Origin: an uncultured Candidatus Saccharibacteria bacterium | GTDB lineage: Bacteria > Patescibacteriota > Minisyncoccia > Ryanbacterales > 2-02-FULL-48-12 | Direction: 5' to 3' | Assembly: GCA_964349275.1 (NCBI GenBank) | Contig: CAYGFT010000002.1 | Span: forward strand, 1 to 41,720 | DNA length: 41,720 nt | Part shown: positions 11,780 through 33,375 of the stretch, one piece after another | Numbering within the stretch: position 1 is the first letter of the stretch | How the letters are laid out: every line of letters starts with the position of its first letter | Position numbers and translations under genes: made by a program | Notes under the pieces: generated by a model | Database searches by the model: none | What the model was told of the DNA's origin: nothing | Seen by the model: the letters and a program-made list of their open reading frames with translations, nothing else

Positions 11780-11792
11780 TATACTGGATAGT

Positions 11793-12380
11793 ATGCCTGA
11801 AGATACGAAAACCAGATCACCGCATTATCATCTCAAATACAAAATTTGCGTATCGGGTGCCGCAGAGACCGGGCACTGCTCGACAGATGCCCTCGATAAG
11901 GCAAAAGAGTTGGGGCGGGAGATTGTTCGGCACAATTGTGTGTTGGTCACGGGTGCCACTACCGGCTTTCCGTTTTGGGCCGCCATTGGGGCTAAAGAAG
12001 AACATGGCATTTCTATCGGACTCTCTCCAGCATCCTCGGAGCGAGAGCATGTGGAGCGATTTAAGCTCCCGGTAGACTATATGGATATGATTATTTATAC
12101 CGGATTTGATTACTCAGGCAGAAACCTGCTCCTTACCCGGTCTGCAGATGCGGTAGTGATTGGGTGCGGACGTATTGGCACGCTCAATGAGTTTACGATT
12201 GCATTTGAAGATGGGAAACCCATTGGGGTACTCTCTGGTACGGGGGGGACTGCGGATGTTATTGAAGATATCGTCAAAGCCTCCAACCGCAAGGCACGTA
12301 TTGTATACGATGAAGACCCAAAACGTCTTTTGGAAAAATTGATAGTTTTGATTGAAGAAGAAAAAATACAAAAAGAATAA
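11793..12380 (+). CDS. SLOG/LOG-like Rossmann protein (TIGR00725-type family)
   Basis: ICVSGAAETG, VLVTGATTG and GCGRIGTLNEFT blocks resemble LOG / DprA-related SLOG folds. ATG at 11793, 14 nt after the upstream stop. Confidence 0.65.
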   Translation: MPEDTKTRSPHYHLKYKICVSGAAETGHCSTDALDKAKELGREIVRHNCVLVTGATTGFPFWAAIGAKEEHGISIGLSPASSEREHVERFKLPVDYMDMIIYTGFDYSGRNLLLTRSADAVVIGCGRIGTLNEFTIAFEDGKPIGVLSGTGGTADVIEDIVKASNRKARIVYDEDPKRLLEKLIVLIEEEKIQKE

Positions 12381-15916: not shown

Positions 15917-16274
15917 GGTGGAGACGGGGAGAGTTGAACTCCCGTCCGAGAGGCTAGGCCATAAAAATGTTTTACAGGCTTATTTCACTAAAAGCGAAAG
16001 GGGTTTGCCCGATAGTGTCGCAATCTTCATCGGACGTCGAGATTGCCAAGCTCGAAGATATAACACCGGGGTTCTGCCGTACGAGCGTGAGCAGATCCGA
16101 TGCCCTGGACGAATCCAGAGAATAGCTAGTGACCACTAGGCAAGCGCAAGCGCCGGCTCAGCGGAAAAAGCTTTTGTAAATAAGTTCGCACTTATTTGTT
16201 TGCAGATTGGTAAAGGAGTCCTGCGCTCCTGCCTGATTTTTAAGGTTTTACCTCCGTCGAAGCCTGTCGTCCCC
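15917..16274 (-). ncRNA. ssrA: tmRNA (SsrA), one-piece
   Basis: 5' GGGGACGACAGGCUUCGACGGAGG pairs with 3' CGUCUCC-A-CC, including the G3:U wobble alanine identity pair. T-arm GGGAG-UUCAACU-CUCCC. Tag reading frame 16189..16136 encodes ANLFTKAFSAEPALALA then UAG, with the stop inside a CUAGUG..CACUAG hairpin. Located beside smpB. Confidence 0.95.
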
Positions 16275-17598: not shown

Positions 17599-17661
17599 TT
17601 AGGCCTCCGCCCTATGACCAGGAACCTTTATTTTTTGGCATTTTACAGGTACATTGTACAT

Positions 17662-19416
17662 ATGCTTATGAAGGAGTACATCAGAAAACTTGTTGCAGAT
17701 AGTCTTACAAGTCTCTACCCGGAGGTGAGTCTTTCGGATTTCTCTATAGAGTATCCGGAGGATTTTTCGCATGGGGATTATGCTACGAACGCCGCTTTGG
17801 TGCATGCGCGGGCGCTTGGCAAGAATCCGCGAGAAATTGCCGAGGCTTTGGTGCAGAAGATGCAGTTCGCAAAAGGTGAGAAGATTGATCGGGTGGAGAT
17901 TGCGGGTCCCGGGTTTATCAATTTTTATGTATTACGTTCAGTACTTGCGGATGGTGTGGCTGAAGTCTTGGAGCGCGCCGATAGATATGGAGCAAATGAT
18001 GCGCTCAAAGGAAAACGCGTTGTCGTAGAATATACCGATCCCAATCCCTTTAAAGAATTTCATATCGGGCACTTTATGACCAATGCCATCGGTGAGTCTC
18101 TGTCGCGCATTGTGGCATTCTGCGGCGCGGATACCAAACGGGTCAACTACCAGGGAGACGTGGGACTTCATGTGGCAAAAGCGGTCTGGGGGATGCTGGT
18201 CGCGCGTGATGCCGGAGAGCTTGTGCAGGTCCGTGCACAGAGTACCGCGAAGAAAGCCATGTTTTTGGGGCGCGCCTATGCATATGGCGCCGGCATGTAT
18301 GAGGATGATGAGACGGTCAAAAAAGAGATTCAGGAGATCAACAAAAAAATATTTGCAAAGTCCGATCTAGAGATCATGGCTTTGTATGCTGAGGGGAGAG
18401 CGTGGAGTCTTGAGTATTTCGAGACGATATATGCGCGCTTGGGTACCAAATTTGACTATTACTTTTTTGAATCCGAAGTCGCGGCTCTTGGCAAAGAGCT
18501 CGTAGAATCCGGTATTGAGAAAAATATTTTTGAGCGATCAGACGGGGCGGTGGTATTTCATGGAGAAAAATATCCAGGCTTGCACACAAGAGTATTTATA
18601 AACTCCGACGGGCTTCCAACCTATGAGGCCAAAGAACTTGGTCTTGCGGTGACCAAGTATGAGCAGTGTCCGCATGATATAGCGCTTGTAGTGACTGCGA
18701 GCGAAGTCGCGGATTATTTTAAGGTGGTGCTCAAAGCTTTGGGGGAGTTGCGTCCCGATCTTGCAGAAAAGATTCAGCATGTACCGCATGGTGTGTTGCG
18801 TCTGAAGTCCGGCAAGATGTCTTCGCGTACCGGCAATGTAATACGGGCAGAGGATCTTATCGAGGAGGTGAGAAAGAAGCTTATGAAACTTCCGGTGCAT
18901 AGCGATGTCACAGCAGAGGTTGTTGCAGGGATACGACACGACGATAGCTTTGCTTCCACAGAGAATGTTGCCATAGGTGCTATAAAATATTCAATTCTGC
19001 GCCAATCTGCAGGCAAAGACATTATCTTTGATTTTGAGACCTCGCTTTCATTTGAGGGGGACTCGGGACCCTATCTGCAGTACACGCATGCGCGCACGTG
19101 CTCGATTTTGCGAAAAGCCGGAGAGGCGGGTATTAAAGATATTTTGGAAGCGCCGTCGGATACGACCAAGAACCTTGAGCGGATACTTTTGCGCTTTCCC
19201 GATGCGGTGCGCGCGGCAGGGGACGAACGGGACGCGCACTATATCGCTACGTATCTCTATGCGCTTGCGCAGGAGTTTAACGCTTTTTATGCGCATGAGC
19301 GGATCGTGGATTCCGGAGATGACGCTCCCTATCGTGTAGCGCTCACAAGAGCCATATCCATAGTACTCAAAAACGGCCTCGATCTTTTAGGTATGAGAGC
19401 ACCGGATCGGATGTAA
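17662..19416 (+). CDS. argS: arginyl-tRNA synthetase
   Basis: YTDPNPFKEFHIGHFMTNAIGESL (HIGH), MSSRTGN (KMSKS-equivalent) and a C-terminal DALR anticodon-binding region (YIATYLYALAQEFNAFY). The start is at ATG 17662 or 17668; the upstream extension is implausible. Confidence 0.93.
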   Translation: MLMKEYIRKLVADSLTSLYPEVSLSDFSIEYPEDFSHGDYATNAALVHARALGKNPREIAEALVQKMQFAKGEKIDRVEIAGPGFINFYVLRSVLADGVAEVLERADRYGANDALKGKRVVVEYTDPNPFKEFHIGHFMTNAIGESLSRIVAFCGADTKRVNYQGDVGLHVAKAVWGMLVARDAGELVQVRAQSTAKKAMFLGRAYAYGAGMYEDDETVKKEIQEINKKIFAKSDLEIMALYAEGRAWSLEYFETIYARLGTKFDYYFFESEVAALGKELVESGIEKNIFERSDGAVVFHGEKYPGLHTRVFINSDGLPTYEAKELGLAVTKYEQCPHDIALVVTASEVADYFKVVLKALGELRPDLAEKIQHVPHGVLRLKSGKMSSRTGNVIRAEDLIEEVRKKLMKLPVHSDVTAEVVAGIRHDDSFASTENVAIGAIKYSILRQSAGKDIIFDFETSLSFEGDSGPYLQYTHARTCSILRKAGEAGIKDILEAPSDTTKNLERILLRFPDAVRAAGDERDAHYIATYLYALAQEFNAFYAHERIVDSGDDAPYRVALTRAISIVLKNGLDLLGMRAPDRM

Positions 19417-19442
19417 AAAAAGAACGCCAGTAAATGGCGTCT
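19415..19442 (-). terminator. rho-independent terminator for the minus-strand ORF 19459..19875
   Basis: On the minus strand: ACGCCA-UUUAC-UGGCGU followed by UCUUUUUUU. It sits in the convergent gap with argS. Confidence 0.65.
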
Positions 19443-19458
19443 CACTCGAAGTTAAGTC

Positions 19459-19875
19459 TTAGTTCCCGATATTTGCGAAATAATAAAGAGCGGTGTTTTG
19501 TAGGTGATAGTTTTCCACAAGAGCTATGCTGATAAAATCGGTTAGCTTTGTTGTTGCATAGGTTTTATCAGCCTTAATATGTGAGGAATGGACTTCTATG
19601 ATCTCTGCTATGGGTGCAGAGAGGGCAATGCCGAGCATATCCCGTCGGACCATTTCATCAGGCCATGCGACCTTTACGAGAGTTTCGTGTAAAAGCTCTT
19701 GGTTTACCTCAAGGATCTGCATTATTTTTTGCGTAAGGTCGTGAGCCAACTCATCTTCATCGCCGGTATAGAGACCGACATTCTTGAGGTATTCCATAAG
19801 ACTCAGTACGGTCCCTGATAAGGCCGCGCGTAAAGCATCAAGCAACTCCTCAAACGTATAATGTGGTTGTTCCAT
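19459..19875 (-). CDS. hypothetical protein (138 aa, helical)
   Basis: A G-rich SD-like AGGGGG lies upstream of the ATG, and a terminator lies downstream. No recognisable family. Confidence 0.55.
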   Translation of the reverse strand: MEQPHYTFEELLDALRAALSGTVLSLMEYLKNVGLYTGDEDELAHDLTQKIMQILEVNQELLHETLVKVAWPDEMVRRDMLGIALSAPIAEIIEVHSSHIKADKTYATTKLTDFISIALVENYHLQNTALYYFANIGN

Positions 19876-19977
19876 CGTGTACCCCCTTGTGGAAATTTAA
19901 GCACACCGTAGCACATATATTCAATTTTTACAATAGTTTGAATTTAAGCCAGTTTTTCATTATGATAGGTGCATCAT

Positions 19978-22900
19978 ATGGCAGAAAAAGAACAACCTGC
20001 GAAGCAAAAGACCATAGCCGGGCGTGAGGAGGAGACGCTCGCTTTTTGGCGTGAGCGCCAAATTTTTGAAAAATCTTTGGAGGCTACCAAGGGTCGGGAC
20101 CCGTTTGTATTTTATGATGGACCGCCGTTTGCGACTGGGCTCCCGCACTACGGGCACCTACTTGCTTCTATTATCAAGGACGCCGTACCCCGCTATCAGA
20201 CGATGCGCGGGAGATACGTCGAGCGCAAGTGGGGGTGGGACTGTCATGGTTTGCCTCTTGAGAATGTGGTGGAGCAAAAACTTGGCCTGAAAAGCAAAAA
20301 AGAAATAGTAGAGTATGGGATAGACAAGTTCAATGAAGTTGCCAAGACCGAGGTGCTTCGCTATGCGGATGACTGGAAGCAGATCATTCCGCGGATCGGG
20401 CGCTGGGTGGACATGGAACATGATTACAAGACCATGGACCCTACATATACCGAGACTGTTTGGTGGATATTTAAAAATCTCTACGACAAGGGATTGATCA
20501 GTGAAGGATACAAATCCATGCACCTCTGCCCTCGATGTGAGACGACTCTTGCGAACTTTGAGGTCTCGCTTGGATATAAAGATATTACTGATGTCTCAGT
20601 GACGGTGAAGTTTAAACTTGAATCGGGACAGAAGATTGGGGATGTTGTGACGGATGACAATACATATATTCTTGCCTGGACTACAACCCCGTGGACCTTG
20701 CCGGGGAATGTGGCTCTTGCGGTGGGGGAGGAGATTGAGTATGTCTTGGCCAAAATATTTATTTCGCAAGGTGATGTTGCAGAAATAAAAAATGGTGGAG
20801 AATACCCCGAAATAAAAAACTTAGAAAATTTTGTCATCTTGGCGAAAGACAAAGCGGAAGACGTTTTAAAAGAGTATGAGGATTACGAAATACTAAAGAA
20901 TTTTAAAGGCTCTGACCTTGTCGGCAAAAAATACAAACCAGTTTTTGATTACTTTGCCAAAGATGAGACTCTCAAAAACCGCGAAAACGGCTGGCAGATC
21001 TACGCCGCGGATTTTGTAAAGACAGAGGAGGGGACGGGCGTAGTGCATATCGCGCCGGCATTTGGCGATGACGACATGCAACTTGGCAAAAAGTTTAGTT
21101 TCCCTTTTGTCCAGCACGTGACCCGAGACGGCAAGTTTGTGCCGGAGGTCAGGGATTTTGCGGGACGAGCGGTAAAGCCGAAAGATACGGCACTGCAGAG
21201 AAAAATTGACGAGGAGATTTTGACGTATCTCAAGGGGCATGACGCATATTTTTCGGAAACGCCGCTCACACACTCCTATCCGCACTGTTGGCGGTGTGAC
21301 ACGCCGCTTTTAAACTACGCGGCTTCTTCGTGGTTTGTAAACGTGGCGCGTATTCGCGATGATCTGCACACGTACAACAAAGAAATTACTTGGGTGCCCG
21401 AGCACATAAAAGAGGGGAGATTTGGGCATGGCCTGGAGACCGCGCCCGACTGGGCGATATCGCGCTCGCGATTTTGGGGGGCGCCGATTCCGGTCTGGAA
21501 ATGTGCGGATTGTAAAACGGTAGAGGTTGCCGGGTCTCTGAAAGATTTGGAGGCAAAGCGGTATACAAAGCCAACGACTCTGATACTCGCGCGCCACGGT
21601 GAGCGTGACGATATGCCGGCTGATATCATGAATAACCCCGCGCGCCACGGAGAGATAACTCTGAATACACATAAAGACGCCAATGTGCATGTTACAGAAA
21701 ACGGCAAAAAAATGATCGAGGAGCATGCGCAAAATCTCAAGGCAACTGGCGGCGTGGATGCCATCTACTCTTCCGAGTATATTCGCGCCAAAGAGACGGC
21801 GGATATTTTTAGTAAAGTGCTCGGTATAGCGGTCTCCTATGATAGCCGTCTCAACGAGCTCAATCATGGTCCGATGTTTGAGGGTAAAAAAGTTTCTGAA
21901 TACTATGGATATTTCTCAACGCCGCTCGAGCGATTTACCAAGGTGCCCGAGGGCGGAGAGTCGCTCGCGCAAGCCCGGGCGCGCATAGTCTCTGCCGCAC
22001 GCGATATTGCCGCTCGCCACGAAGGTGAGCGGGTGCTCATCGTGAGCCATGGGGATCCTTTGTGGATGCTCGAAGGGGCACTTACCTTTACTGCTCCCGA
22101 GGCTATGCTCTTGTCCCGTTCTGCTACATATATACAGCAGGGGGAGATGCGCGAGATGATATTTCCAAACTATCCCTTCAACAACGACGGCGAGGTGGAT
22201 TTTCACCGGCCGTATAGTGATGCGGTGTCTTTGCAGTGTGCGTGTGGCGGAGAGACGCGACGCATTCCGGAGGTATTTGACTGTTGGTTTGAGTCGGGAT
22301 CCATGCCCTACGGACAGATGCACTACATGGGGGAGCCGCTTCTGCATTTTGATCCCCGGAGCGGCCGAGGATTTCCGGCGGATTTTATCGCCGAGGGACT
22401 TGATCAGACTAGAGGCTGGTTTTATTCGTTGCATGTTTTAGCCGGAGCGTTGTTTCAAAAGCCGGCCGCGACACATATTTTGGTAAATGGTCTGATACTT
22501 GCCGAGAACGGACAAAAAATGTCTAAGCGCCTTAAAAATTATCCCGATCCGATGACGGTAGTGGAGAAATACGGAGCCGATGCATTGCGTCTCTATCTTC
22601 TCGGCTCGCCAGCGGTAGCGGCAGACGATCTGAATTTCTCCGAGCGCGGGGTGGACGAGATACTCAAAAAAATGATTCAGCGCCTTGCCAATGTCGCTAC
22701 GTTTTATGAAATGTATCGCGATGAGGCGGTACCGGCGTTTGAGCTTTCGCACGCCACGCATGTGCTCGACAAGTTTTTGGTCTACGAGCTCGCGCAACTT
22801 TCGCAAAACGTCTCGCGTGCTATGGATACCTGTCGCCTTGACCGCGGAGTGCGCGCCCTCAATGATTTCGTAGACATGTTTTCCACGGTGTATCTCCAAT

Positions 22901-23616
22901 ATTCGCGGGATAGGTTCAAAGAAGGAGAGGAGGGGAGAGTGGAGGCGCTTAGTACACTTCGCTATGCGATTTTGGAGACTGCAAAAATTATTGCGCCATT
23001 TGCACCGTTCTTGGCGGAGCGTCTCTACCAGGGCGTACGTCAGGAGTCAGACAAAGAGTCGGTGCACCTGGAGCCGTGGCCGGAGTTTGGGCGCGAAATT
23101 GATGGCTGGAGTGATGTGCGTGAGGAGATGGCCAAGGTTGCTAAGTCGGTGGAGGTGATACTAGCAGAGCGGAGTTCTGCGGGTATCAGTGTGCGTCAAC
23201 CCCTTTCACTCTCTGTCATACATGCGGATATCATCCCGCAAGGAGCGGAGTATCGTGATATCGTAAGCAAAAGAACAAATGTCGAAGTGTTGAAAGAGGC
23301 AACGAACCTTCCTGAAGGGAAGTATGCCGAGCTTGATACGACTATTACACCAGAGCTTAAAGAGAAAGGCATGCTTCGCGAATTTGTACGCGGGGTGCAG
23401 GATGCACGCAAAAAGAGTGGGTTTGTCCCGCAACAAAAAATAACGGTTTTAAAGATCTATGGTTCGTCGGAAGTTCTTGCATTATTTTTTGAAAAATTTG
23501 GGGCAGAAATTAAAAAGGCAGTGGGCGCGAGCGATGTGGATGTGGTATTGGTTGGACAAGGGGAGTATACGATTTCTCTTGGTGAGGAGGATGTTTCTAT
23601 TTCACTCGGATCCTAA
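19978..23616 (+). CDS. ileS: isoleucyl-tRNA synthetase (type-2-like) with a nested histidine-phosphatase domain
   Basis: HYGH (20146-20157), WTTTPWTLPGN (editing CP1), WAISRSRFWGAPIPVW, CWFESGSMPY and KMSKR (22516-22530). An extra ~205 aa at 21574-22188 carries RHG / RAKETA / E / SHG histidine-phosphatase blocks. ATG 19978 is preferred over GTG 19969. Confidence 0.93.
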   Translation: MAEKEQPAKQKTIAGREEETLAFWRERQIFEKSLEATKGRDPFVFYDGPPFATGLPHYGHLLASIIKDAVPRYQTMRGRYVERKWGWDCHGLPLENVVEQKLGLKSKKEIVEYGIDKFNEVAKTEVLRYADDWKQIIPRIGRWVDMEHDYKTMDPTYTETVWWIFKNLYDKGLISEGYKSMHLCPRCETTLANFEVSLGYKDITDVSVTVKFKLESGQKIGDVVTDDNTYILAWTTTPWTLPGNVALAVGEEIEYVLAKIFISQGDVAEIKNGGEYPEIKNLENFVILAKDKAEDVLKEYEDYEILKNFKGSDLVGKKYKPVFDYFAKDETLKNRENGWQIYAADFVKTEEGTGVVHIAPAFGDDDMQLGKKFSFPFVQHVTRDGKFVPEVRDFAGRAVKPKDTALQRKIDEEILTYLKGHDAYFSETPLTHSYPHCWRCDTPLLNYAASSWFVNVARIRDDLHTYNKEITWVPEHIKEGRFGHGLETAPDWAISRSRFWGAPIPVWKCADCKTVEVAGSLKDLEAKRYTKPTTLILARHGERDDMPADIMNNPARHGEITLNTHKDANVHVTENGKKMIEEHAQNLKATGGVDAIYSSEYIRAKETADIFSKVLGIAVSYDSRLNELNHGPMFEGKKVSEYYGYFSTPLERFTKVPEGGESLAQARARIVSAARDIAARHEGERVLIVSHGDPLWMLEGALTFTAPEAMLLSRSATYIQQGEMREMIFPNYPFNNDGEVDFHRPYSDAVSLQCACGGETRRIPEVFDCWFESGSMPYGQMHYMGEPLLHFDPRSGRGFPADFIAEGLDQTRGWFYSLHVLAGALFQKPAATHILVNGLILAENGQKMSKRLKNYPDPMTVVEKYGADALRLYLLGSPAVAADDLNFSERGVDEILKKMIQRLANVATFYEMYRDEAVPAFELSHATHVLDKFLVYELAQLSQNVSRAMDTCRLDRGVRALNDFVDMFSTVYLQYSRDRFKEGEEGRVEALSTLRYAILETAKIIAPFAPFLAERLYQGVRQESDKESVHLEPWPEFGREIDGWSDVREEMAKVAKSVEVILAERSSAGISVRQPLSLSVIHADIIPQGAEYRDIVSKRTNVEVLKEATNLPEGKYAELDTTITPELKEKGMLREFVRGVQDARKKSGFVPQQKITVLKIYGSSEVLALFFEKFGAEIKKAVGASDVDVVLVGQGEYTISLGEEDVSISLGS

Positions 23617-24254
23617 TGTCTTACCATATACATGAGACGGAGGCGATTGTCCTTGCATCACGCAATGTTGGCGAAGCGGATAAGATTATCCGATTCTACA
23701 CCAAAGACTTTGGGACTATTGCGGTGATTGCCAAAGGGGTGCGTCTCGAAAAATCAAAACTGCGTGGGAGCCTGGATATGTGCATGCATACACGCATCGC
23801 GTTTGTGGTGGGTAAAGACATGTATCGTCTCACGGATGCATATGCGCTCGATGTCTACCCACTCATCGGCAAGGAGGGTCCACGGTTTGACGCGCTCTCA
23901 GCGATAGCGCGTTTTGTGATAGGGATCGCTTCAGGAGAGGAGCCAGATGTGGATCTCTGGGCGCTCTTGAGTGCTACGCTCGGTCGGGTTGGCTCGGGAG
24001 TCTTTGGTCCAGAGCATGTGTTGCCAATATTGTATGCGTTTCAGGCAAAAGCTTTAGCACATCTCGGATATATGCCCGAGGGTCAGCCAGAAGTAGTGAG
24101 TGAACTTTTGCGGTCGGGAGATATTGTCCCTGCGGTATCGCTTGCGGAGCTCCGTAAAAGTGAGGTGCGGGAATTTTTTGAACAAATCTATTTTTATGCG
24201 CTCAAAGAAATGCGCACACCGGAGGATTTCGCGAGTAGGCAATGGGCGGTATAA
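23616..24254 (+). CDS. recO: DNA repair protein RecO
   Basis: An N-terminal OB-fold block (EAIVLASRNVGEADKIIRFYTKDFGTIAVIAKGVR) is typical of RecO. The start overlaps the ileS stop (TAATG). Confidence 0.8.
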   Translation: MSYHIHETEAIVLASRNVGEADKIIRFYTKDFGTIAVIAKGVRLEKSKLRGSLDMCMHTRIAFVVGKDMYRLTDAYALDVYPLIGKEGPRFDALSAIARFVIGIASGEEPDVDLWALLSATLGRVGSGVFGPEHVLPILYAFQAKALAHLGYMPEGQPEVVSELLRSGDIVPAVSLAELRKSEVREFFEQIYFYALKEMRTPEDFASRQWAV

Positions 24255-24266
24255 TACATCATACCT

Positions 24267-26174
24267 ATGGGCAGAGTAGATGAATTAAAAAATCGGTTGT
24301 TTCGCCAAGAGGAACATTTTGAGGAACGTGCGGGAGATCCCCAGCTGGATCCTGCAGAAGTCCAAAAAAGTCCGCATACCTGGGCTGATGCACCACAAGA
24401 TGAGATCAAGGCATTTTGGCTACGCAAACAACAGCGTCGGCGGCGTGCGGTGATTTGGGGTATATCGATTACGCTCGTGTTGGTGCTTGTCGGAGCGGGT
24501 GCGACATTTTATTTTTTGCAGAATGTCGGACGGGTGAACACCAAAAATGTTGATTTGCAGATTATTGCGCCGGAGCGGATTACGGCAGGAGACCGCATAG
24601 CCTATGAGGTGCATTTTAAAAACAACAATCAAACGGTGCTCGAGTCTGTAGAGCTCACATTTAATTATCCAGAAGGAGCCTTGCCGATTTTCGGCAGTCC
24701 TCCAAAGGGGAAGTTTCGAGACCGCCGTGATATCGGCCGCTTGAATATTGGCGAGGAGCGTACGGAGCGTTTTGAGGCATATTTGTTGGGCAAAGAGGGG
24801 ACCAAGCTTACCGCTCAGGCATCACTTGAGTATCGGCCATCCAACTCCAGCGCGCGGTTTGGTAACGACGCGGACCTCTCGACTATTGTGGATCGTTCAC
24901 CAATCGGCGTATCTATCGAGTTTCCCGATGAGATCAATGTTGGTCAGGAGGTAGTGCTGGAGGCACGCTACGTTTCTACTGCAGAGACGGTATTTAAAAA
25001 TATTTCGCTCAACCTCGAATACCCCGAGGGGTTTGAATTTGTGGCATCTGATCCTGCACCCGCAAAAAATAATGCTATCTGGAATCTGGGTGACCTCTCG
25101 CCCGGGCAGTCAGGGGCTATTACGGTCAGAGGCATCCTTAATGGTACGGCTGATGAGCGCAAAAATATCAATGCCAAAATCGGCATATTCAATAGCGAGG
25201 TCAATACCTGGACTATTTATGGTGATACGCAAAAAATAGTACTCTTGCGTGCGCCACTGCTTTCTATCGACGCATTTGTAAACAACTCCAAAGATTATGT
25301 AGCGGCTCCCGGGGATACGGTTACCATGACATTCGCTTGGAAAAATAACCTGAAAGTCACGGTGACAGATGTGATCATCGAAGCCGAGCTCTCCGGCAGA
25401 ATATTTGATTATGGGTCGGTGAAGGTACAGCAGGGAGTTATGGATGGCGCCACACGCAAAGTCGTCTGGAATGGATTTTCCGAGCCGGCGCTTAAGTTTA
25501 TACAACCAGGCAAATCGGGGAGAGTATCCTTTACAGTTAAACTCTTAAGTGATCTCCCCATCGCGGATGCCAATGACCGCAATTTTACGGCTTCAGCCTC
25601 GGGGCGTATCGCGACCAATAATATTCCGCAAGGGTACGAGGGTATTGATATTACGGGCAAAAGTTCGGTAACATTCAAGACGACCACCCAGCTGGGTATC
25701 GCCGCACGTGGCTACTACTATACAAGTCTTTTGCCCAACTCCGGGCCATTGCCGCCGCAAGTGGGCGAAGAGACGACGTATATGATTACGCTTTCCTTGA
25801 GCAATCTTTCCAATGACGTGGAGAATGTGGTAGTGACTACGGGTCTTCCCTCATATGTAAAATGGAAAGAGACGGTAAACCCTCCGGATGCCGCGATTCG
25901 ATACAATACCAACACCGGCGAGATCTCCTGGGACGTAGGTTTACTGGAGGCAGGAACTGGCAGAGTCCATCCAGCACGTGAAGTTTCTTTTCAGGTAGGC
26001 ATTATTCCGGGTCCAAACTTGGCAAACACCACCCCTGATTTAACCGGACGTATTCTCGTGAGTGGGCGTGATACGTTCACCGGGCAGAGTCTACAGAGTG
26101 CGGCAAACAAAATTACTACTGCGGTGCGCACAGATCCGCGCGTACTTCCCAACCAATATAGCGTAACCCCATAA
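24267..26174 (+). CDS. membrane-anchored surface protein with about four DUF11/CARDB-like beta-sandwich repeats
   Basis: A charged N-terminus, one TM (AVIWGISITLVLVLVGAGATFYF), then the repeated pattern G-D/E-x-[IV]-x-Y/M-x-[IV]-x-[FW]-K-N...[IV]-x-[LV]...P-E/S-G four times. Confidence 0.7.
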   Translation: MGRVDELKNRLFRQEEHFEERAGDPQLDPAEVQKSPHTWADAPQDEIKAFWLRKQQRRRRAVIWGISITLVLVLVGAGATFYFLQNVGRVNTKNVDLQIIAPERITAGDRIAYEVHFKNNNQTVLESVELTFNYPEGALPIFGSPPKGKFRDRRDIGRLNIGEERTERFEAYLLGKEGTKLTAQASLEYRPSNSSARFGNDADLSTIVDRSPIGVSIEFPDEINVGQEVVLEARYVSTAETVFKNISLNLEYPEGFEFVASDPAPAKNNAIWNLGDLSPGQSGAITVRGILNGTADERKNINAKIGIFNSEVNTWTIYGDTQKIVLLRAPLLSIDAFVNNSKDYVAAPGDTVTMTFAWKNNLKVTVTDVIIEAELSGRIFDYGSVKVQQGVMDGATRKVVWNGFSEPALKFIQPGKSGRVSFTVKLLSDLPIADANDRNFTASASGRIATNNIPQGYEGIDITGKSSVTFKTTTQLGIAARGYYYTSLLPNSGPLPPQVGEETTYMITLSLSNLSNDVENVVVTTGLPSYVKWKETVNPPDAAIRYNTNTGEISWDVGLLEAGTGRVHPAREVSFQVGIIPGPNLANTTPDLTGRILVSGRDTFTGQSLQSAANKITTAVRTDPRVLPNQYSVTP

Positions 26175-26179
26175 CTTTT

Positions 26180-27583
26180 ATGAATGAAGTGACGATGGAA
26201 AAAATTAGCAGTCTCTGTAAAAGACGGGGATTTATCTTCCCCGGTTCGGAGATTTATGGTGGGCTCGCGAACTCCTGGGATTATGGTCCTCTGGGTGTGG
26301 AGCTCAAAAACAATATCAAGCAACTTTGGTGGAAGCGGTTTGTCCACGAGAGAGACGATGTGGTGGGGATTGATGCGGCACTTATTATGAATCCCAAAGT
26401 GTGGGAGGCGAGCGGGCATCTCAAAGAGTTTTCTGATCCCTTGGTGGAGTGCAAGGAGTGTCATAGTCGGTTTCGTGCGGACCATCTTTTGGATGAATGG
26501 AAAAAAGAGCCAACTATCGATATGAAAGATGTGCCTGAGGGTTCGGTCATCGATATGCCACACGCCTCTTCCACGCTCTCTATGATCAAGGATTTTTTGG
26601 ATGAAAAAGTAAAATGTCCGCACTGTGGTAAAAAAAATTGGGCAAAGCCCCAACAGTTCAATCTCATGCTCAAAACATACCTAGGTCCTGCCGAAGAGCA
26701 GGCCAATACGGTATTTTTCCGTCCCGAGACGGCACAAGCTATGTTTGTAGATTTTAAAAACGTGGCCGATTCTTCACGTAAGCGCCTGCCATTTGGTATC
26801 GCACAAATCGGCAAGGCGTTTCGTAATGAAATAACGCCAGGGAATTTTATATTCCGTATGCGTGAGTTCGAGCAGATGGAGATTGAGTATTTTGTGCGCG
26901 AGGAGGACTGGCAAACCTATTTTGACCATTGGCTCGCCGAGATGCGCGCTTGGCTCAAAGAGTTGGGAGTGAGTGAGGCGCGTATACACGAGGCTGAAAT
27001 CCCGGACGGTGAGCGTGCGCATTATTCCAAACGTACGGTGGATTTTGAATACGAGTATCCTTTTGGTCAAAAAGAACTTTATGGTCTTGCCTATCGGGGC
27101 AACTTTGATCTGAAAAATCATTTTCCGGATGGTGGACCATATCGTGATCCGGAGACTCGTGAAGAGTTTTGGCCGCACGTGATAGAGCCGACCTGGGGAG
27201 TGGATCGCTCGGTGTTGGTGACGCTTCTGGAAGCCTACCAAGAGGATACAGAAAAAAAACGTGTGTACCTCAAGCTCCCGCCAAAACTTGCTCCATATAA
27301 AATAGCGGTGTTCCCGCTTTTAGCCAACAAACCCGATCTTGTGGCAAAAGCGCGTGAGATATATGATGCGCTCCGCAAAAAGTTTGCGGTCTCTTGGGAT
27401 GATCGCGGCAACGTCGGTAAGCGTTATTATGCGCAGGATGAGATCGGCACCCCGTGGTGTGTCACCGTAGATTTTCAGACGCTTGAGGATGCTACGGTGA
27501 CGGTGCGGGATCGTGACACGGGGGAGCAGGTGCGTGTGGCTATCGCGGATCTTGACTCTTTCATCGGTGAGAGGTTAGTCTAG
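26180..27583 (+). CDS. glyQS: glycyl-tRNA synthetase (class II, homodimeric GlyQS type)
   Basis: LCKRRGFIFPGSEIYGGLANSWDYGPLG, FRPETAQAMF, GKAFRNEITP, FRMREFEQMEIEYF and an anticodon-binding C-terminus. The start could be ATG 26195 instead. Confidence 0.93.
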   Translation: MNEVTMEKISSLCKRRGFIFPGSEIYGGLANSWDYGPLGVELKNNIKQLWWKRFVHERDDVVGIDAALIMNPKVWEASGHLKEFSDPLVECKECHSRFRADHLLDEWKKEPTIDMKDVPEGSVIDMPHASSTLSMIKDFLDEKVKCPHCGKKNWAKPQQFNLMLKTYLGPAEEQANTVFFRPETAQAMFVDFKNVADSSRKRLPFGIAQIGKAFRNEITPGNFIFRMREFEQMEIEYFVREEDWQTYFDHWLAEMRAWLKELGVSEARIHEAEIPDGERAHYSKRTVDFEYEYPFGQKELYGLAYRGNFDLKNHFPDGGPYRDPETREEFWPHVIEPTWGVDRSVLVTLLEAYQEDTEKKRVYLKLPPKLAPYKIAVFPLLANKPDLVAKAREIYDALRKKFAVSWDDRGNVGKRYYAQDEIGTPWCVTVDFQTLEDATVTVRDRDTGEQVRVAIADLDSFIGERLV

Positions 27584-27614
27584 TCCCAGTAGTATCTTTT
27601 TTAGGGAGGTATGT

Positions 27615-27851
27615 GTGTTTCATCTTCCTTCGATGCCACCAAATCGTCTCAGTCCGCGTGGGTGGATGTTGTTGGGTTTCTGTATCCTCGTACTCCTCTC
27701 GCAGTCCTGGCAGGCGTTTTCTTATGCAGGCAGACCCGGCGGCACGGATTGGTTTGCGAGCTTACTAGGCATTTTCTGTCTGGTGCTCGCGATAGGGGTA
27801 GCGGGTTTAGGGTATCTCTATCTGCCAAGGAGTAGCAGGCAAAAGAAATGA
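27615..27851 (+). CDS. hypothetical small membrane protein (2 TM, 78 aa)
   Basis: SD GGGAGG (27604-27609) is 5 nt before the GTG at 27615. Two hydrophobic helices. A terminator follows. The alternative ATG-frame ORF at 27611 is non-hydrophobic and less protein-like. Confidence 0.45.
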   Translation: MFHLPSMPPNRLSPRGWMLLGFCILVLLSQSWQAFSYAGRPGGTDWFASLLGIFCLVLAIGVAGLGYLYLPRSSRQKK

Positions 27852-27857
27852 AATTTT

Positions 27858-27886
27858 GGAAGGAGGCACATCCTCCTTTTTTGTTT
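27858..27886 (+). terminator. rho-independent terminator
   Basis: AAGGAGG-CACA-(U)CCUCCUU hairpin followed by a U-run (TTTTTTGTTT). Confidence 0.7.
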
Positions 27887-27920
27887 GAACTTTTCTGGAT
27901 GCATGTGTTACCATCCCAAT

Positions 27921-29189
27921 ATGCAACACTCAAAAACGACTCTTCCCAATGGTATGCGGGTAATTACGGTTCCTATGCATGATACCAAAAGCCTCACACT
28001 GCTCGTGCTTTTTGGTACAGGTTCAAAGTATGAGACTAGATCGACGAGTGGTATCTCGCATTTTTTGGAGCACCTCTTTTTTAAAGGCACAAAGCGCCGT
28101 CCACGTCCTGGGCAAGTGCACCAGGAGCTTGATGATGTAGGAGCAGAGCATAACGCGTTCACTTCCAAAGAGCTTACCGGCTACTGGGTCAAGGTAGACT
28201 CACGGCGATTTGATCTTGCACTTGATATTGTTTCGGATATTCTCCTTGATCCGTTGTTTGATGCGAAAGAAATAGAAAAAGAGCGGGGAGTGATTTTGCA
28301 GGAGATGAGCATGTATATGGACAGTCCCATGCGTCGGGTACATGAGGTGTTTGAGTCGCTACTTTATGGGGATCAGCCTGCCGGTTGGGAGACAATAGGC
28401 ACCAAGGAGATTATCTCCAGTCTCAAACGGACAGATTTTGCCAAGTATCGTGAGTCGCAATACGTCGGCTCCAACGCGGTGGTAATTGTCGCGGGCAACT
28501 TTGTAGAGGATACGGCGAGCAAGCGCATCCACCAGGTATTTTCTAAAATCAAAAAAGGTAGTCCCAAACCAAAACTCAAAGTACGGGAGGCACAAAAAAA
28601 TTCCCAGGTCTCGATTGAGTACAAAGATACCGATCAGAGTCACGTGGTAATTGGGGTACGCGGATATACCATGTTTGATGAAGATCGCTATGCGGCCTCG
28701 CTTTTGGCAACTATTCTGGGTGGCAAGACAAGTTCACGGTTGTTTCGCGAGATTCGTGAGAAGCGGGGTCTTGCCTATGCACTCATGGCCGATGCAGAAC
28801 ACTACACCGATTCTGGGTATCTAAGTGTGTATGTTGGCACGCCCCATGATAAGTTAAAAGAGGTGGTGCGGCGCGTAGTAGAGGCGTTTGGCAAGATTCG
28901 TGACGAGGGTGTCTCGGAGCGTGAGCTGGCTCGTGCCAAGGATTTTTATCGGGGGCACTTGGCTATTGGTCTTGAATCTTCAGACGAAGTGGCATCATTT
29001 TTTGGGACCCAAGAGCTGTTCAAAAAAACGCTCATGGCGCCTGAAGCGGTCATGGAGCGCATCCAGGCCGTAACTACCAAAGATCTCCAGCGCGCTACGG
29101 ATTTTATGTTTCGGCTGGAGAAGCTGAATGTCGCGATTATTGGACCACACAAAGACCCACAGCTATTTCAAGCGTTACTCAAATTATAG
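27921..29189 (+). CDS. M16 family zinc peptidase (pitrilysin/insulinase-like)
   Basis: Inverted zinc motif HFLEH in GISHFLEHLFFKGT, a downstream E in NAFTSKE, and the start LPNGMRVITVPM. The ATG at 27921 is chosen because the upstream extension overlaps the terminator. Confidence 0.9.
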   Translation: MQHSKTTLPNGMRVITVPMHDTKSLTLLVLFGTGSKYETRSTSGISHFLEHLFFKGTKRRPRPGQVHQELDDVGAEHNAFTSKELTGYWVKVDSRRFDLALDIVSDILLDPLFDAKEIEKERGVILQEMSMYMDSPMRRVHEVFESLLYGDQPAGWETIGTKEIISSLKRTDFAKYRESQYVGSNAVVIVAGNFVEDTASKRIHQVFSKIKKGSPKPKLKVREAQKNSQVSIEYKDTDQSHVVIGVRGYTMFDEDRYAASLLATILGGKTSSRLFREIREKRGLAYALMADAEHYTDSGYLSVYVGTPHDKLKEVVRRVVEAFGKIRDEGVSERELARAKDFYRGHLAIGLESSDEVASFFGTQELFKKTLMAPEAVMERIQAVTTKDLQRATDFMFRLEKLNVAIIGPHKDPQLFQALLKL

Positions 29190-29194
29190 ATTGT

Positions 29195-30232
29195 ATGCCC
29201 AAAGATAAAACCATTATCATCTCTACCGGTACGATATTGCGTACTATTCTTTTGCTTCTGGGGGTAGTATTTTTATATTACGTGCGCGATGTGGTAGCTA
29301 TTCTTTTGATAGCGGTGGTTATCGCCTCTGCGATAGAGCCGGGGATAAAGTGGTTTTGTAAGTGGGGGCTCCCGCGAGTGATTGCTGTCCTTGTTATCTA
29401 TCTTACAACCATCGCGCTTTTGGGTTTTTTGTTTTATCTCGTGATTCCTCCCACCATCAATCAATTGCAGGATTTTGTTTCCGGGTTCCCCGCATATCTT
29501 GAGAGTACCTTGTTGCAGCTCAAAGAGACGTTTACCTTCCTGCCATTTGATGCATTCTCTCCATCTATTTCCACGCTCGCGTCGCGGCTTGACGTTCTAG
29601 TGAGTGAGAAGTTACTTGAGTTTTTCTCCCCTGGGTCGTTTTTGTTTGACGGGCCTATGGCTATTGTATTTGCGGTCATCATCGCGTTTTATCTGTCCGT
29701 GCAAGAGGACGGCGTGGGAGATTTTCTTCGGATCGTTACTCCCTATCGGCACGAATCGTATCTTATAGATCTTTGGGGTCGGTCCCAGTACAAGATTGGA
29801 CGGTGGTTTCAAGGGCAGATTTTGCTGGGGGTTTTGGTGGGAGTGCTTGTGTATCTCGGTCTTACACTTTTGGGAGTGAAATACGCGCTCGTGCTTGGCA
29901 TTGTTTCGGCCACGTTTGAGATTATTCCTTATTTTGGTCCGGTAATGGCAGCTATCCCGGGGATTGCGATCTCGGTAGTGCAAAGTCCGGTCTTGGGTCT
30001 CTGGGTAGTGCTCTTGTATGTAATGGTCCAGCAACTCGAAAATCACCTCATTTATCCGGTGGTGGTGCGTAAGACCGTTGGCGTGCCGCCGCTTTTGGTT
30101 ATCATCTCTCTCTTGATTGGGGCAAAAATTGGCGGGTTTTTCGGGGTTGTGCTTGCTGTGCCCTTGGCGGTAGTATTAGTGGAGTTTCTCAATGACGTCG
30201 CAGAGAAGAAAAAGACCTTTCAAGTAGAATAA
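29195..30232 (+). CDS. AI-2E family transporter (PerM/UPF0118)
   Basis: About 8 TM. The C-terminal blocks IIPYFGPVMAAIPG and LENHLIYPVVVRKTVGVPPLLVIISLLIGAKIGGFFGVVLAVPLA are typical of the family. Confidence 0.85.
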   Translation: MPKDKTIIISTGTILRTILLLLGVVFLYYVRDVVAILLIAVVIASAIEPGIKWFCKWGLPRVIAVLVIYLTTIALLGFLFYLVIPPTINQLQDFVSGFPAYLESTLLQLKETFTFLPFDAFSPSISTLASRLDVLVSEKLLEFFSPGSFLFDGPMAIVFAVIIAFYLSVQEDGVGDFLRIVTPYRHESYLIDLWGRSQYKIGRWFQGQILLGVLVGVLVYLGLTLLGVKYALVLGIVSATFEIIPYFGPVMAAIPGIAISVVQSPVLGLWVVLLYVMVQQLENHLIYPVVVRKTVGVPPLLVIISLLIGAKIGGFFGVVLAVPLAVVLVEFLNDVAEKKKTFQVE

Positions 30233-30239
30233 TTATCTT

Positions 30240-31811
30240 ATGGCAGACAAATTTTATATCACCACATCTATACCATATGTAAACTCCGTGCCTCATGTGG
30301 GGCACGCTTTGGAGTTTGTGCAAGCCGATGCCATCGCACGCTACCGGCGGATTTTGGGGGAGGACGTGCGGTTTCTCACCGGTACCGACGAGCATGGTGC
30401 CAAAATCGCTCGCGCTGCCCAAGCGGCAGGGAAGAGTCCCCAGGAGTTTGTGGATGCAAATGCCGCGCGCTTCAAGGAGCTTTTGGCGGCCTTGTCTATT
30501 TCCCATGACGATTTTATTCAGACGTCGGATCAAAAGCGCCATTGGCCAGGAGCTCAAGCTTTGTGGCAAAAACTTGATGCGGCGGGGGATATTTCCAAGG
30601 CTTCTTACAAAGGTCTGTACTGTGTCGGCCATGAGGCATTTGTTACCGACAAAGACTTGGTAAATGGGATTTGTGAGGATCATGGCAAGCCACCGGAGGT
30701 TGTAGAAGAGGAAAATTATTTTTTCAAACTCTCGCGCTATACTGCCGACATTAAAAAAATTATTGAGTCGGGCGAGTTGCAGATTATTCCGGACGCGCGC
30801 AAAAACGAGATGCTGACGTTCTTGGATGCTGGACTTGAGGACGTAAGCTTCTCGCGCCCCGCTAAAGATATTCCGTGGGGAGTGCCGGTGCCGGGGGATG
30901 AGTCGCAAAACATGTATGTTTGGTGTGACGCGCTTTCCAACTACATCAGTGCGCTTGGATACGGTAGTGCTCATGAGGCGTTATTCAAAACCTACTGGCC
31001 GGCGGATATGCATCTTATTGGCAAAGACATTCTTCGTTTCCATTCATTGATCTGGATCGGCATGCTCCTTTCTGCTAAACTCCCGATCCCGAAGCGCATT
31101 CTCGTGCATGGATTTATTATTTCCGGTGGCAAAAAAATGTCTAAGTCTTTAGGAAACGTCATCGACCCATTTGAGATGATAGAAAGATATGGCGCGGATG
31201 CGCTTCGCTATTTCTTTTTACGCGAGATATCTACATTTGAAGATGGTGATTTGACCGCGGAGCGCTTTCAGATGGCGTACAATGCCAATCTCGCCAATGG
31301 TCTTGGCAATCTTGTCTCACGCACGGCAAAAATGATCGAGTCGTATTTCGATGGCCGCATTCAGAAGCCTGCCGAGGAGGTGCTTCTCTCAGTGCCGCTT
31401 CAGGCTTCTCTTGCCCTGTTTGATGGCGCACAGCAAAATCTCTCCGTAAAAAGTACCAGCTTGCGTTATTTTGTGCAGGAGGTAGTAGAGCCGCAGTATA
31501 CACAAGCCATGGACAATTTCCGTCTCAATGAAGCGCTTGGAGTTCTGTGGCATCTCATCTCGGTGATGGACGCCTACATTCAAGAGTATGAACCGTTCAA
31601 GCTTGTGCACGTGGATAAGACCAAGACACAAGCTATTCTGTGGCAGTTGGCGCAAGCCAGTGCACGTCTCGGACTCTTGTTGAGTCCTTTTATGCCCGAT
31701 ACTGCGGCAAAAGTGCTTGCGACATTTGGCGCAGGTAAGGTTGCTTCTTTGGAGGATGCGACAGAGTTTGAGGTAAAAAAAGGCGAGGGATTGTTTCCGC
31801 GCATAAGCTGA
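30240..31811 (+). CDS. metG: methionyl-tRNA synthetase (short form)
   Basis: FYITTSIPYVNSVPHVGHALE (HIGH region), WCDALSNY and KMSKSLGNVIDP. Confidence 0.95.
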   Translation: MADKFYITTSIPYVNSVPHVGHALEFVQADAIARYRRILGEDVRFLTGTDEHGAKIARAAQAAGKSPQEFVDANAARFKELLAALSISHDDFIQTSDQKRHWPGAQALWQKLDAAGDISKASYKGLYCVGHEAFVTDKDLVNGICEDHGKPPEVVEEENYFFKLSRYTADIKKIIESGELQIIPDARKNEMLTFLDAGLEDVSFSRPAKDIPWGVPVPGDESQNMYVWCDALSNYISALGYGSAHEALFKTYWPADMHLIGKDILRFHSLIWIGMLLSAKLPIPKRILVHGFIISGGKKMSKSLGNVIDPFEMIERYGADALRYFFLREISTFEDGDLTAERFQMAYNANLANGLGNLVSRTAKMIESYFDGRIQKPAEEVLLSVPLQASLALFDGAQQNLSVKSTSLRYFVQEVVEPQYTQAMDNFRLNEALGVLWHLISVMDAYIQEYEPFKLVHVDKTKTQAILWQLAQASARLGLLLSPFMPDTAAKVLATFGAGKVASLEDATEFEVKKGEGLFPRIS

Positions 31812-31818
31812 TATCTGT

Positions 31819-32655
31819 ATGCACCCAAAACTCATAGACATCCATACGCACGTCAATTTCAATGCTTTTAAAGAAGATGGGCCCGCAATTATTGACCGCA
31901 CGCTCAAAGGCGATGTTTGGATGATTCTTGTGGGATCACAGATTGATACCTCGCGGCGTGCGGTCTCGTATGCGGAACAATATCCCGAAGGCGTGTATGC
32001 CGCCGTGGGTCTCCACCCGATTCATTTATTTGAGGATCACTTTGATGTGGCAGAGGCCGAACAAAAAGCAGGAGTCCCGAGCTATACTACACGTCCGGAG
32101 GTATTTGACCACGATGCATACAAAGAAATTGCGATGCACCCAAAGACGGTAGCGATAGGGGAGTGTGGACTTGATTATTTTCGTGGGAGAGACACAGACG
32201 AGGTCAAAAAAGCCCAGCAAGATACATTTCGCAAGCAAGTGGCGCTCGCTCGTGAGGTCAAAAAACCGCTCATGATTCATTGTCGCAATGCCTATGAGGA
32301 TGTGATTACAATACTCAAAGAGGAAAAGGCTGACGAGATCGGTGGCGATATTCATTTTTTTGCTGGATCTTGGGATATCGCGAAACAGTTTCTAGACCTG
32401 GGTTTTTATCTCTCATTTACGGGAGTTATTACATTTGCCCGGGATTATGATGCGGTGCTCCGAAACGTGCCACTGGATCGCGTCATGGTGGAGACGGATG
32501 CGCCCTATGTGACGCCGGTGCCGTATCGAGGTAAGCGTAACGAGCCTCTGTATGTGGAATATGTAGCCAAAAAAATCGCGGAAATAAAAGGTATCGTGCC
32601 TGAAAAAGTTTTTGCGCAAACCGTGCAAAATACACGCAAACTATTTCGCATCTAA
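31819..32655 (+). CDS. TatD family metal-dependent hydrolase/DNase
   Basis: LIDIHTHVNF, AIGECGLDY, MIHCRNA and ETDAPYVTPVPYRGKRNEP. Confidence 0.9.
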   Translation: MHPKLIDIHTHVNFNAFKEDGPAIIDRTLKGDVWMILVGSQIDTSRRAVSYAEQYPEGVYAAVGLHPIHLFEDHFDVAEAEQKAGVPSYTTRPEVFDHDAYKEIAMHPKTVAIGECGLDYFRGRDTDEVKKAQQDTFRKQVALAREVKKPLMIHCRNAYEDVITILKEEKADEIGGDIHFFAGSWDIAKQFLDLGFYLSFTGVITFARDYDAVLRNVPLDRVMVETDAPYVTPVPYRGKRNEPLYVEYVAKKIAEIKGIVPEKVFAQTVQNTRKLFRI

Positions 32656-32745
32656 CTATAGAGCTGATTTTTAGGTGCAGGTCCTAAATAGCTCAAGGGC
32701 GAAGTGTATGGAGGGGAAGGGGGAATTGGCACGGTATCAACTAAA

Positions 32746-32781: not shown

Positions 32782-32784
32782 TTT

Positions 32785-33351: not shown

Positions 33352-33375
33352 TTATTGTAGTTGGAGTACTATAGC

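Follow-up and report, generated by a model that had tools for sequence, protein, structure and literature searches.

Aminoacyl-tRNA synthetases are among the best-studied enzymes, and inserted domains, whether for editing or for tRNA binding, define how they work. The editing domain of leucyl-tRNA synthetase (LeuRS), for instance, is counted as an insertion-only module with synthetase hosts (PMC13114784). In isoleucyl-tRNA synthetase (IleRS), connective peptide 3 (CP3) binds zinc in the Thermus thermophilus enzyme and not in those of Candida or S. aureus, and its topology differs among the three (PMC7191050); since both zinc binding and topology vary, CP3 can be regarded as a structurally plastic surface element. 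The gene considered here, ileS of an uncultured Candidatus Saccharibacteria bacterium that GTDB places in the Ryanbacterales, lies in a 41,720-nucleotide stretch of DNA referred to below as the window (assembly GCA_964349275.1, contig CAYGFT010000002.1, positions 1 to 41,720 of the forward strand). Its product is a type-2 (eukaryote-like) IleRS that carries a histidine phosphatase domain nested in CP3.

A sequence-only reading of the window had described an uninterrupted ileS open reading frame (ORF) of about 1212 residues with a complete, probably catalytically competent phosphatase in the synthetase core. The frame is indeed uninterrupted and gives 1215 residues from a GTG start, or 1212 from an alternative ATG at 19978. 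Profiles, conservation, selection and models agree on the complete nested phosphatase and on its probable competence. The positions given in that reading for HYGH, KMSKR, RHG and SHG (22045-22053) are all exact. The features of the gene are set out below, with conservation counted over the 120 best database homologues, which are 46-84% identical to the window protein overall.

19969..23616, forward strand: ileS, taken from the ORF list.
20146..20157, forward strand: HYGH, the HIGH class I signature; His in 118 of 120 homologues, gaps in the other two.
20677..20703, forward strand: WTTTPWTLP, the Thr-rich motif of the CP1 editing domain, read directly.
21502..21513, forward strand: CADC, the CxxC half of the CP3 zinc knuckle, 5' of the insert; both Cys in 120 of 120.
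21574..22197, forward strand: the nested His_Phos_1 domain with its linkers, residues 536-743, placed by alignments to 1ILE and 9W01.
21592..21600, forward strand: the catalytic RHG, with Arg542, the nucleophile His543 and Gly544; R and H in 120 of 120, G in 117.
21643..21654, forward strand: a second, look-alike RHGE, residues 559-562; in the three closest relatives only, the column being gapped in 100 of 120.
21784..21786, forward strand: Arg606 (in SSEYIRAKET), second Arg of the phosphate pocket; R in 119 of 120.
21856..21858, forward strand: Glu630 (in LNELNHG), the presumed general acid; E in 120 of 120 nested proteins, D or E in split-gene relatives.
22048..22050, forward strand: His694 (in VSHGDP), the second catalytic His; H in 120 of 120.
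22237..22245, forward strand: CAC, the CxC half of the CP3 zinc knuckle, 3' of the insert; both Cys in 120 of 120.
22516..22530, forward strand: KMSKR, the KMSKS class I signature; first K in 120 of 120.
22768..23211, forward strand: the anticodon-binding domain PF08264 (Anticodon_1, E 7e-25), residues 934-1081.
Residues 1121-1213, forward strand: the C-terminal DUF5915 region that follows the anticodon-binding domain (Pfam).

The host enzyme is readily recognised on both sides of the insert. The IleRS equivalog model TIGR00392 of NCBIfam scores 816 bits against a cutoff of 621 and matches in two stretches around the insert, and Pfam places tRNA-synt_1 in two stretches with His_Phos_1 between them, followed by Anticodon_1 and DUF5915. 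Sequence matches in the PDB are to type-2 and eukaryotic IleRS at E values of 1e-183 to 1e-200 (the best at 1e-195 to 1e-200), compared with 1e-68 to 1e-80 for type-1 enzymes, and the Foldseek ranking of the whole-protein model also puts the type-2 and eukaryotic enzymes ahead. In the CP1 motif, W228, T229-231, W233, T234 and L235 are invariant in a 53-sequence alignment. The AlphaFold2 (AF2) model of residues 10-1105, made from 53 sequences, has a pLDDT of 89.8 (84-97 in the insert part) and a pTM of 0.85, and its body matches 7D5C and 1ILE with target-normalised TM-scores of 0.84-0.85. Since the synthetase body can be superposed on crystal structures of IleRS, the model shows no disruption of the host: the body is predicted to be unperturbed, and the phosphatase to form a compact lobe of its own. 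That the gene stands in a conserved argS-ileS-recO block speaks for its being the housekeeping copy.

The insertion point was fixed by alignment to solved enzymes. With HMMER, residues 19-535 of the window protein align to 13-483 of T. thermophilus IleRS (1ILE) and residues 744-1073 to 489-821, so that, as the sequence-only reading had stated for Thermus, no more than a handful of residues, five, stands at this point; in the alignment to human cytoplasmic IleRS, residue 529 pairs with 490 and residue 744 with 498. Some 203-208 residues thus take the place of a 5-7-residue loop of other type-2 IleRS, between ...YTKP and DFHR.... The start of the insert had been given correctly at 21574, and the end, put at 22188, lies three codons further on, at 22197. 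The CADC and CAC that bracket the insert align to the CxxC and CxC of T. thermophilus IleRS. Both linkers are short; the C-terminal one is conserved, with P201 invariant. The G+C content of the insert, 0.47-0.57, is similar to that of its flanks.

The family of the insert is equally clear. Taken alone it matches His_Phos_1 (PF00300) at E 4e-31 with 108.6 bits, against a gathering score of 21.7, and within the whole protein at E 3.7e-29 with 102.2 bits; this is far outside chance. The sequence-only reading had proposed testing for such a match, and for one of the flanks to tRNA-synt_1 (PF00133), and both were found. Whether the insert folds independently had also been raised, and AF2 returned a confident domain from a 30-sequence alignment (pLDDT 95.8, pTM 0.92). 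The best Foldseek match of this model is the PspA phosphoserine phosphatase 4IJ5 (E 1e-13), with further matches to PhoE 1H2E, GpgP Rv2419c, the E. histolytica phosphoserine phosphatase (PSP) and CobC. Similarity to these small phosphatases amounts to 25-28% identity, a Foldseek probability of 1.0 and a target TM of 0.64-0.75, whereas cofactor-dependent phosphoglycerate mutases (dPGM), with 230-250 residues, give a target-normalised TM of only 0.55-0.62; the insert, at about 205 residues, is shorter than the usual dPGM length of about 230-250, which includes an extra segment and a C-terminal tail.

No NCBIfam phosphatase subfamily model (cobC, PspA, GpmB, SixA or dPGM) scores above its cutoff on the insert or on its free-standing relatives. 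The best model for the insert is RNase H/acid phosphatase NF005567, with 80 bits against a cutoff of 326; cobC gives 65 against 163, PspA 51 against 350, and the dPGM models 53 against 225 (dPGM_arch), 20 against 81.7 (pgm_1) and 20 against 305 (PRK14115). The free relatives are matched best by the short archaeal dPGM model, at 76-102 bits for dPGM_arch against the cutoff of 225. Since every subfamily model falls below cutoff, the insert is a histidine phosphatase without assigned specificity and not a recognisable mutase. The earlier label 'PGAM-like' therefore holds for the superfamily and fails as a mutase assignment, no dPGM model reaching cutoff and the fold being that of the small phosphatases. 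Around the presumed acid the window has E-L-N-H-G and other clades E-V-N-T-G or D-I-N-W-G; PhoE has E-I-H-L-G at this position, and dPGM enzymes have E-R-H-Y-G. It was concluded that the insert is a complete branch-1 histidine phosphatase of the small PhoE/PspA/CobC-like type. Membership among known anti-phage defence proteins was considered and dropped, as PADLOC gave nothing meaningful: no model matched the insert or P0171, and P0175 had one marginal, unrelated match (E 5e-4).

The residues expected to carry out catalysis are retained. Two RHG motifs stand near the start of the domain, and the Pfam and phmmer alignments begin at the second of them in spite of its poor conservation. The second RHGE was rejected as the catalytic motif, being shared by three of 120 homologues and lying inside a subclade-specific loop. 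The first RHG, which the sequence-only reading had chosen, is taken as catalytic because it directly follows strand beta-1 (E2-7 of the model, in TLILARHG) and is invariant in homologues. With His543 and Arg542 thus placed, and with Arg606, Glu630 and His694, the full set of residues predicted to support phosphoryl transfer via a phospho-histidine is conserved. Among homologues the residue that follows the second catalytic His may be G, E, N or D. RHGExxxN, with its canonical Asn four residues after RHG, is kept in 96 of the nested homologues; the window reads RHGERDDM and lacks this Asn. That Asn is common in the superfamily without being universal, and histidine phosphatases such as SixA also lack it.

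The window belongs to a subclade (P0001-P0020) that has an extra loop of about 14 residues right after the catalytic RHGE (21601-21654, residues 545-562 in the window). This subclade shares SHGDPLW with the free-standing relatives, and the main nested clade combines the Asn with SHEYPxW. Selection was estimated against the closest genome, Candidatus Ryanbacteria RIFCSPHIGHO2_02_FULL_48_12 (locus L009, 87-89% identity): dN/dS is 0.074 in the N-terminal part of the protein and 0.088 in the C-terminal part, and with 0.090 the insert is constrained by purifying selection just as the synthetase is.

The nested design is widespread. PF00133 and PF00300 occur together in every one of the 120 best homologues, which come from NCBI, JGI, ENA and Logan assemblies, and the insert has the same alignment position in each; the insertion, for which the sequence-only reading had proposed a search in related genomes, is there throughout. 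Named lineages with the nested form include Ryan-, Niyogi-, Yonath-, Sung-, Campbell-, Zambryski-, Lloyd- and Vogelbacteria. A search with a profile of the insert returned 446 representative clusters (50% identity) at E<=1e-30, and IleRS flanks were present in 109 of the best 149. The nested form is an inherited trait of a large clade within the Paceibacteria. In the databases these proteins are labelled 'class I tRNA ligase family protein', 'isoleucyl-tRNA synthetase' or 'hypothetical'. Full-text literature searches on IleRS or aminoacyl-tRNA synthetases together with histidine phosphatases, PGAM, CPR or Patescibacteria did not bring up a description, most subscription journals being outside their coverage; within that range the earlier impression that the architecture is undescribed is upheld. 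The word 'phosphatase' is absent from the AARS Online paper, which tabulates domains recurring across synthetase families (PMC11580382). Both protein families are well known, class Ia synthetases are noted for nested domains, and the architecture is publicly auto-annotated; what is new, within the literature searched, is the combination.

In other ARRANGEMENTS, the phosphatase is also joined to arginyl-tRNA synthetase (ArgRS), to Sua5 and to several loops of IleRS. Two to four diverged His_Phos domains occur in the IleRS proteins P0184, P0266, P0154, P0197, P0190, P0229, P0188, P0252 and P0121. Numbered on the window enzyme without its insert, where the junction is 535|536, DCWFESG stands at 563 and KMSKR at 642, P0184 (L096:5001-9260) and P0266 (L097:4034-8173) have no CP3 insert and carry one domain after about 584, in the loop before FPADFIAEG, and one after about 710, beyond KMSKS, where the anticodon-binding helices begin. 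A CP3 insert (after CxC, about 551) is combined with those sites in P0154 and P0197, and P0190, P0229, P0188 and P0252 have two domains in tandem within CP3. By pattern search the RH[G/A] motif is found in every copy, and the later Arg and His motifs in most, not all. Copies inside one protein are 24-35% identical, and copies at the same site in different proteins are mutual best matches. The P0184 type is present on six contigs of up to 1.06 Mb, and IleRS is the host in nine of the 11 proteins with multiple His_Phos domains among the best representatives. His_Phos domains have thus come into IleRS, or stayed in it, at three or more loops, all in the KMSKS half of the Rossmann fold.

Fusions to other hosts were of two kinds. 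In L094:5001-7070 and L095:5001-7070, from two assemblies, His_Phos_1 forms the C-terminus of ArgRS. Sua5/TsaC-phosphatase fusions make up four clusters (for example P0210, L093:977-2140). The partners of patescibacterial Sua5 are many: MGMT (PF01035) is the commonest, and TruB, 2H cyclic phosphodiesterase (PF07823/PF13563), His_Phos_1 itself, methylpurine glycosylase, NUDIX and GNAT also occur. With so many unrelated partners, the Sua5-phosphatase fusion says little. Taken together, the ArgRS and Sua5 fusions and the multi-domain IleRS change the weighting between the explanations discussed below.

In sister lineages the phosphatase exists as a gene of its own beside ileS. The closest relatives of the insert include free proteins of 187-198 residues, and in L001, L002, L004, L005 and L089 a free phosphatase gene stands directly upstream of an insert-less ileS, whose product has 931-974 residues in the split type. 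The order in the split block is argS, phosphatase, ileS, a gene x, recO, a gene for a DUF11-like protein and a class II synthetase gene, and synteny from argS to recO was seen in L001, L002, L005 and L089. From phosphatase stop to ileS start the distance is -11 to +9 nucleotides in 12 of 13 split cases; L087 (837-1406 and 1986-4844) is the one split locus with a long spacer, of 579 nucleotides. A scan of GTDB confirmed 297 stretches, from which 80 loci were kept, 70 of them nested and 10 of the split type, so that the phosphatase is linked to ileS in all 80, a set biased towards SHGDPLW-type domains by the narrow alignment used. Three more distant insert-less IleRS, P0340, P0362 and P0378, are 63-65% identical to the split type and have no adjacent phosphatase.

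In a neighbour-joining tree of IleRS made without the insert columns (midpoint-rooted, without support values), the nested enzymes form one clade and the split-type enzymes lie on several deeper branches. This topology is suggestive, and no more, of a two-gene phosphatase-ileS arrangement that would have come first, followed by one nesting insertion. The neighbour-joining tree of the phosphatase domain (183 columns), in which the window subclade groups nearer to the split forms than the main nested clade does, was too poorly resolved to decide between one and several insertions, and no conclusion was drawn from it. A six-frame search with hidden Markov models at maximum sensitivity found no phosphatase relic in the argS-ileS spacer of the window (19381-19990). 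An apparently split ileS in L073 (about 4997-5095) and an odd ORF in L048 were set aside as runs of N marking scaffold gaps; the gaps, inside ileS of two GTDB records, have duplicated flanks and mimic a split gene. One feature was noted in the spacer of the window.

19459-19875, reverse strand: a 138-residue ORF without a Pfam match, in the place of the free phosphatase of split relatives.

Repeated recruitment at several sites of one host, and the operon form, are the grounds for proposing that the phosphatase serves the synthetase, a reading that we favour over the others and regard as evenly balanced in itself. The task of the phosphatase would be to dephosphorylate something bound at or near the synthetic site which, left phosphorylated, would prevent charging; a phosphorylated Ser of the KMSKS loop, a tRNA 3' end that carries phosphate, and a nucleotide by-product are the candidates. 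A narrower version, which we think unlikely, is that the nested phosphatase makes IleRS self-repairing or toxin-resistant by stripping inhibitory phosphate on the KMSKS side. Its first target could be the Ser of the KMSKS loop: the kinases HipA and HipT phosphorylate the Ser of KLSKR/KMSKS in GltX and TrpS and thereby inactivate these synthetases (PMC6581861). Its second could be a tRNA 3' end phosphorylated or pyrophosphorylated by toxSAS-type toxins, which are described as pyrophosphorylating tRNA 3' ends (PMC11559606; bioRxiv 10.1101/2021.04.30.441581). Several observations weigh against a service to the synthetase. The related P0340, P0362 and P0378 come from ileS genes that do without a neighbouring phosphatase. 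Adjacency may be inherited synteny, since recO and the gene of an unrelated surface protein keep their places nearby just as constantly, and in L094 and L095 the block reads smpB-argS-recO-...-proS-M16-AI2E without ileS at that position, the phosphatase having stayed behind. Gene fusion is promiscuous in Patescibacteria, as the Sua5 partners illustrate. The nearest solved relatives all act on small metabolites, the window subclade has I, L, V or M at the canonical Asn position, and the residues beside the catalytic set are clade-dependent (HGDPLW or HEYPxW). To our knowledge, moreover, IleRS works without this domain in all other organisms, related Paceibacteria included, and we know of no branch-1 histidine phosphatase that acts on RNA ends.

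In the main rival explanation, a housekeeping small-molecule phosphatase or mutase, such as a missing phosphoglycerate mutase (PGM; an idea already in the sequence-only reading) or a phosphoserine phosphatase, chanced to lie beside ileS in the conserved block, was fused to it or inserted in it through genome compaction, and would act independently of aminoacylation; the fusion would then tie expression of the phosphatase to an essential gene, and nothing more. Such an origin is possible, if somewhat doubtful. The solved structures nearest in fold are metabolite phosphatases (PspA, PhoE, GpgP, E. histolytica PSP and CobC), the free relatives match the short archaeal dPGM best (98-102 bits), tpiA and pgk lie in the window, genes are tightly packed at all junctions of these loci, functionally unrelated fusions like those of Sua5 are common in these genomes, and the phosphatase remains in the block, fused to ArgRS, where ileS is absent from that position. 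PGM has been reported absent from several shallow Parcubacteria clades (Jaffe et al., PMC7304191), and the IleRS annotation would hide an enzyme nested in the protein. Set against this are the failure of every dPGM, PspA and CobC model to reach cutoff, a domain of about 205 residues with a lower target TM to dPGMs than to small phosphatases, and a motif around the acid that looks more like that of PhoE than like the E-R-H-Y-G of dPGM. Nor does a chance fusion readily account for the presence, in other lineages, of His_Phos domains in three or more distinct loops of this one enzyme, and it leaves unexplained why IleRS is the host of nine of 11 multi-domain proteins.

The domain might instead have kept its phosphate pocket without being an enzyme, and act as a ligand sensor or as an extension of CP3 that is structural or binds tRNA. 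The loss of the canonical Asn and the gain of a 14-residue loop in the window subclade would fit such a module, as would the variable residue after the second catalytic His, and the short linkers, the conserved C-terminal linker and the pTM of 0.85 suggest a fixed, integrated lobe. Loss of the Asn is not decisive, however, SixA being without it as well; all five catalytic residues (two His, two Arg and the acid) are kept in 119-120 of 120 homologues, and multi-domain proteins retain RH[G/A] in each of their extra copies. The nucleophile is normally the least that a pseudo-enzyme loses, and its invariance here makes a non-catalytic role very unlikely. An origin as an assembly chimera, a frameshifted gene pair or a selfish, intein-like mobile insertion has a negligible probability. 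Nothing was found in its favour, and it was considered because the window is a single metagenomic contig. The frame is open throughout, the same architecture recurs in the 120 best homologues, which come from independent assemblies, and in 70 GTDB genomes, and the insert has the G+C of its flanks and a dN/dS of 0.09. The sequence-only reading had already judged the insert not to be intein-like, and rightly so: Pfam finds no Hint, intein or LAGLIDADG/endonuclease match in the protein, and the insert begins T-T-L and ends G-E-V with D as the next residue, which are not intein junctions.

What is at stake differs with the explanation. If the phosphatase serves the synthetase, it would be a new accessory activity in the aminoacyl-tRNA synthetase repertoire and may be relevant to the way in which cells reverse the inhibitory phosphorylation of synthetases or of tRNA ends. 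Were toxin resistance its purpose, this would be the first synthetase with a built-in antidote and would point to a route by which phosphorylated synthetases are reactivated. A hidden metabolic enzyme would explain the apparent glycolytic gap of Parcubacteria and would illustrate how one-name-per-protein annotation hides enzymes nested in other genes. A second, unrelated catalytic domain in the Rossmann fold is in any event undescribed in the literature searched, and it is conserved in hundreds of species of a major radiation that is uncultivated. Nature also offers a series: enzymes with no phosphatase, with a separate upstream gene, with one nested domain, and with two to four domains at different loops. 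This series makes the reason for joining the two activities experimentally tractable.

The block argS-ileS-recO-DUF11-like-proS-M16-AI2E is conserved, in the same order, in relatives. Five synthetase genes lie within 19 kb (17614-36305), and ileS is the one among them with a phosphatase domain. The ORFs of the window that were scanned with Pfam include no phosphoglycerate mutase gene. The other features are as follows.

15-710: a HIT/GalT-like protein just upstream of tpiA, with weak Ap4A-phosphorylase-N and DUF4921 matches.
726-1514: tpiA.
1511-2653: pgk, overlapping tpiA by 4 nucleotides.
11676-12380: a SLOG cluster4 (LDcluster4) protein.
15917-16274, reverse strand: the tmRNA gene, with tag peptide ANLFTKAFSAEPALALA.
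17614..19416, forward strand: argS (Pfam).
23616..24254, forward strand: recO (Pfam).
26180-27583: a class II ProRS-like gene.
30240-31811: metG.
32704-33351: a protein with a PaaX central Cas2-like domain (PF20803).
33816-36305: leuS.
41608-41694, reverse strand: tRNA-Leu(caa).

Compared with known systems, the host is closest to T. thermophilus IleRS (1ILE/1JZQ), to which the HIGH and KMSKS signatures, the CP1 editing domain, the CxxC...CxC knuckle and the anticodon-binding domain all align; it differs in having about 208 residues where that enzyme has 5. Neither the PDB matches nor the searched literature contain a solved or described IleRS with a second catalytic domain at the CP3 site. 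A different extra enzyme domain is indicated by ileS_w_GNAT (NF040702), which, judged from the name of the model alone, is an IleRS with a GNAT domain; the window protein scores 300 bits against its cutoff of 1999. The insert in turn resembles PhoE/YhfR (1H2E, 1EBB), PspA (4IJ5), CobC and GpgP Rv2419c in fold, in its length of about 200 residues and in the order RHG...R...E...H. Those enzymes are free-standing and have known small-molecule substrates, whereas here the domain is embedded in IleRS or encoded beside it, and the window subclade further departs from the small branch-1 phosphatases in missing the canonical Asn.

A precedent for a CobC-like His_Phos_1 domain joined to a nucleic-acid enzyme is provided by the RNase H/acid phosphatase proteins of the Rv2228c type (NF005567). 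That is an end-to-end fusion with RNase H, whereas the present domain is nested in a synthetase and, with a score far below the cutoff of the model, is not a member of the family. In architecture the nearest parallel is the CP1 editing domain of IleRS, ValRS and LeuRS, which likewise places a whole domain in a loop of the Rossmann fold, where it works beside the synthetic site. CP1 is universal and ancient and acts on aminoacyl-tRNA, whereas the insert in CP3 belongs to the unrelated histidine phosphatase superfamily, is confined to some uncultivated lineages and is found also as a free gene.

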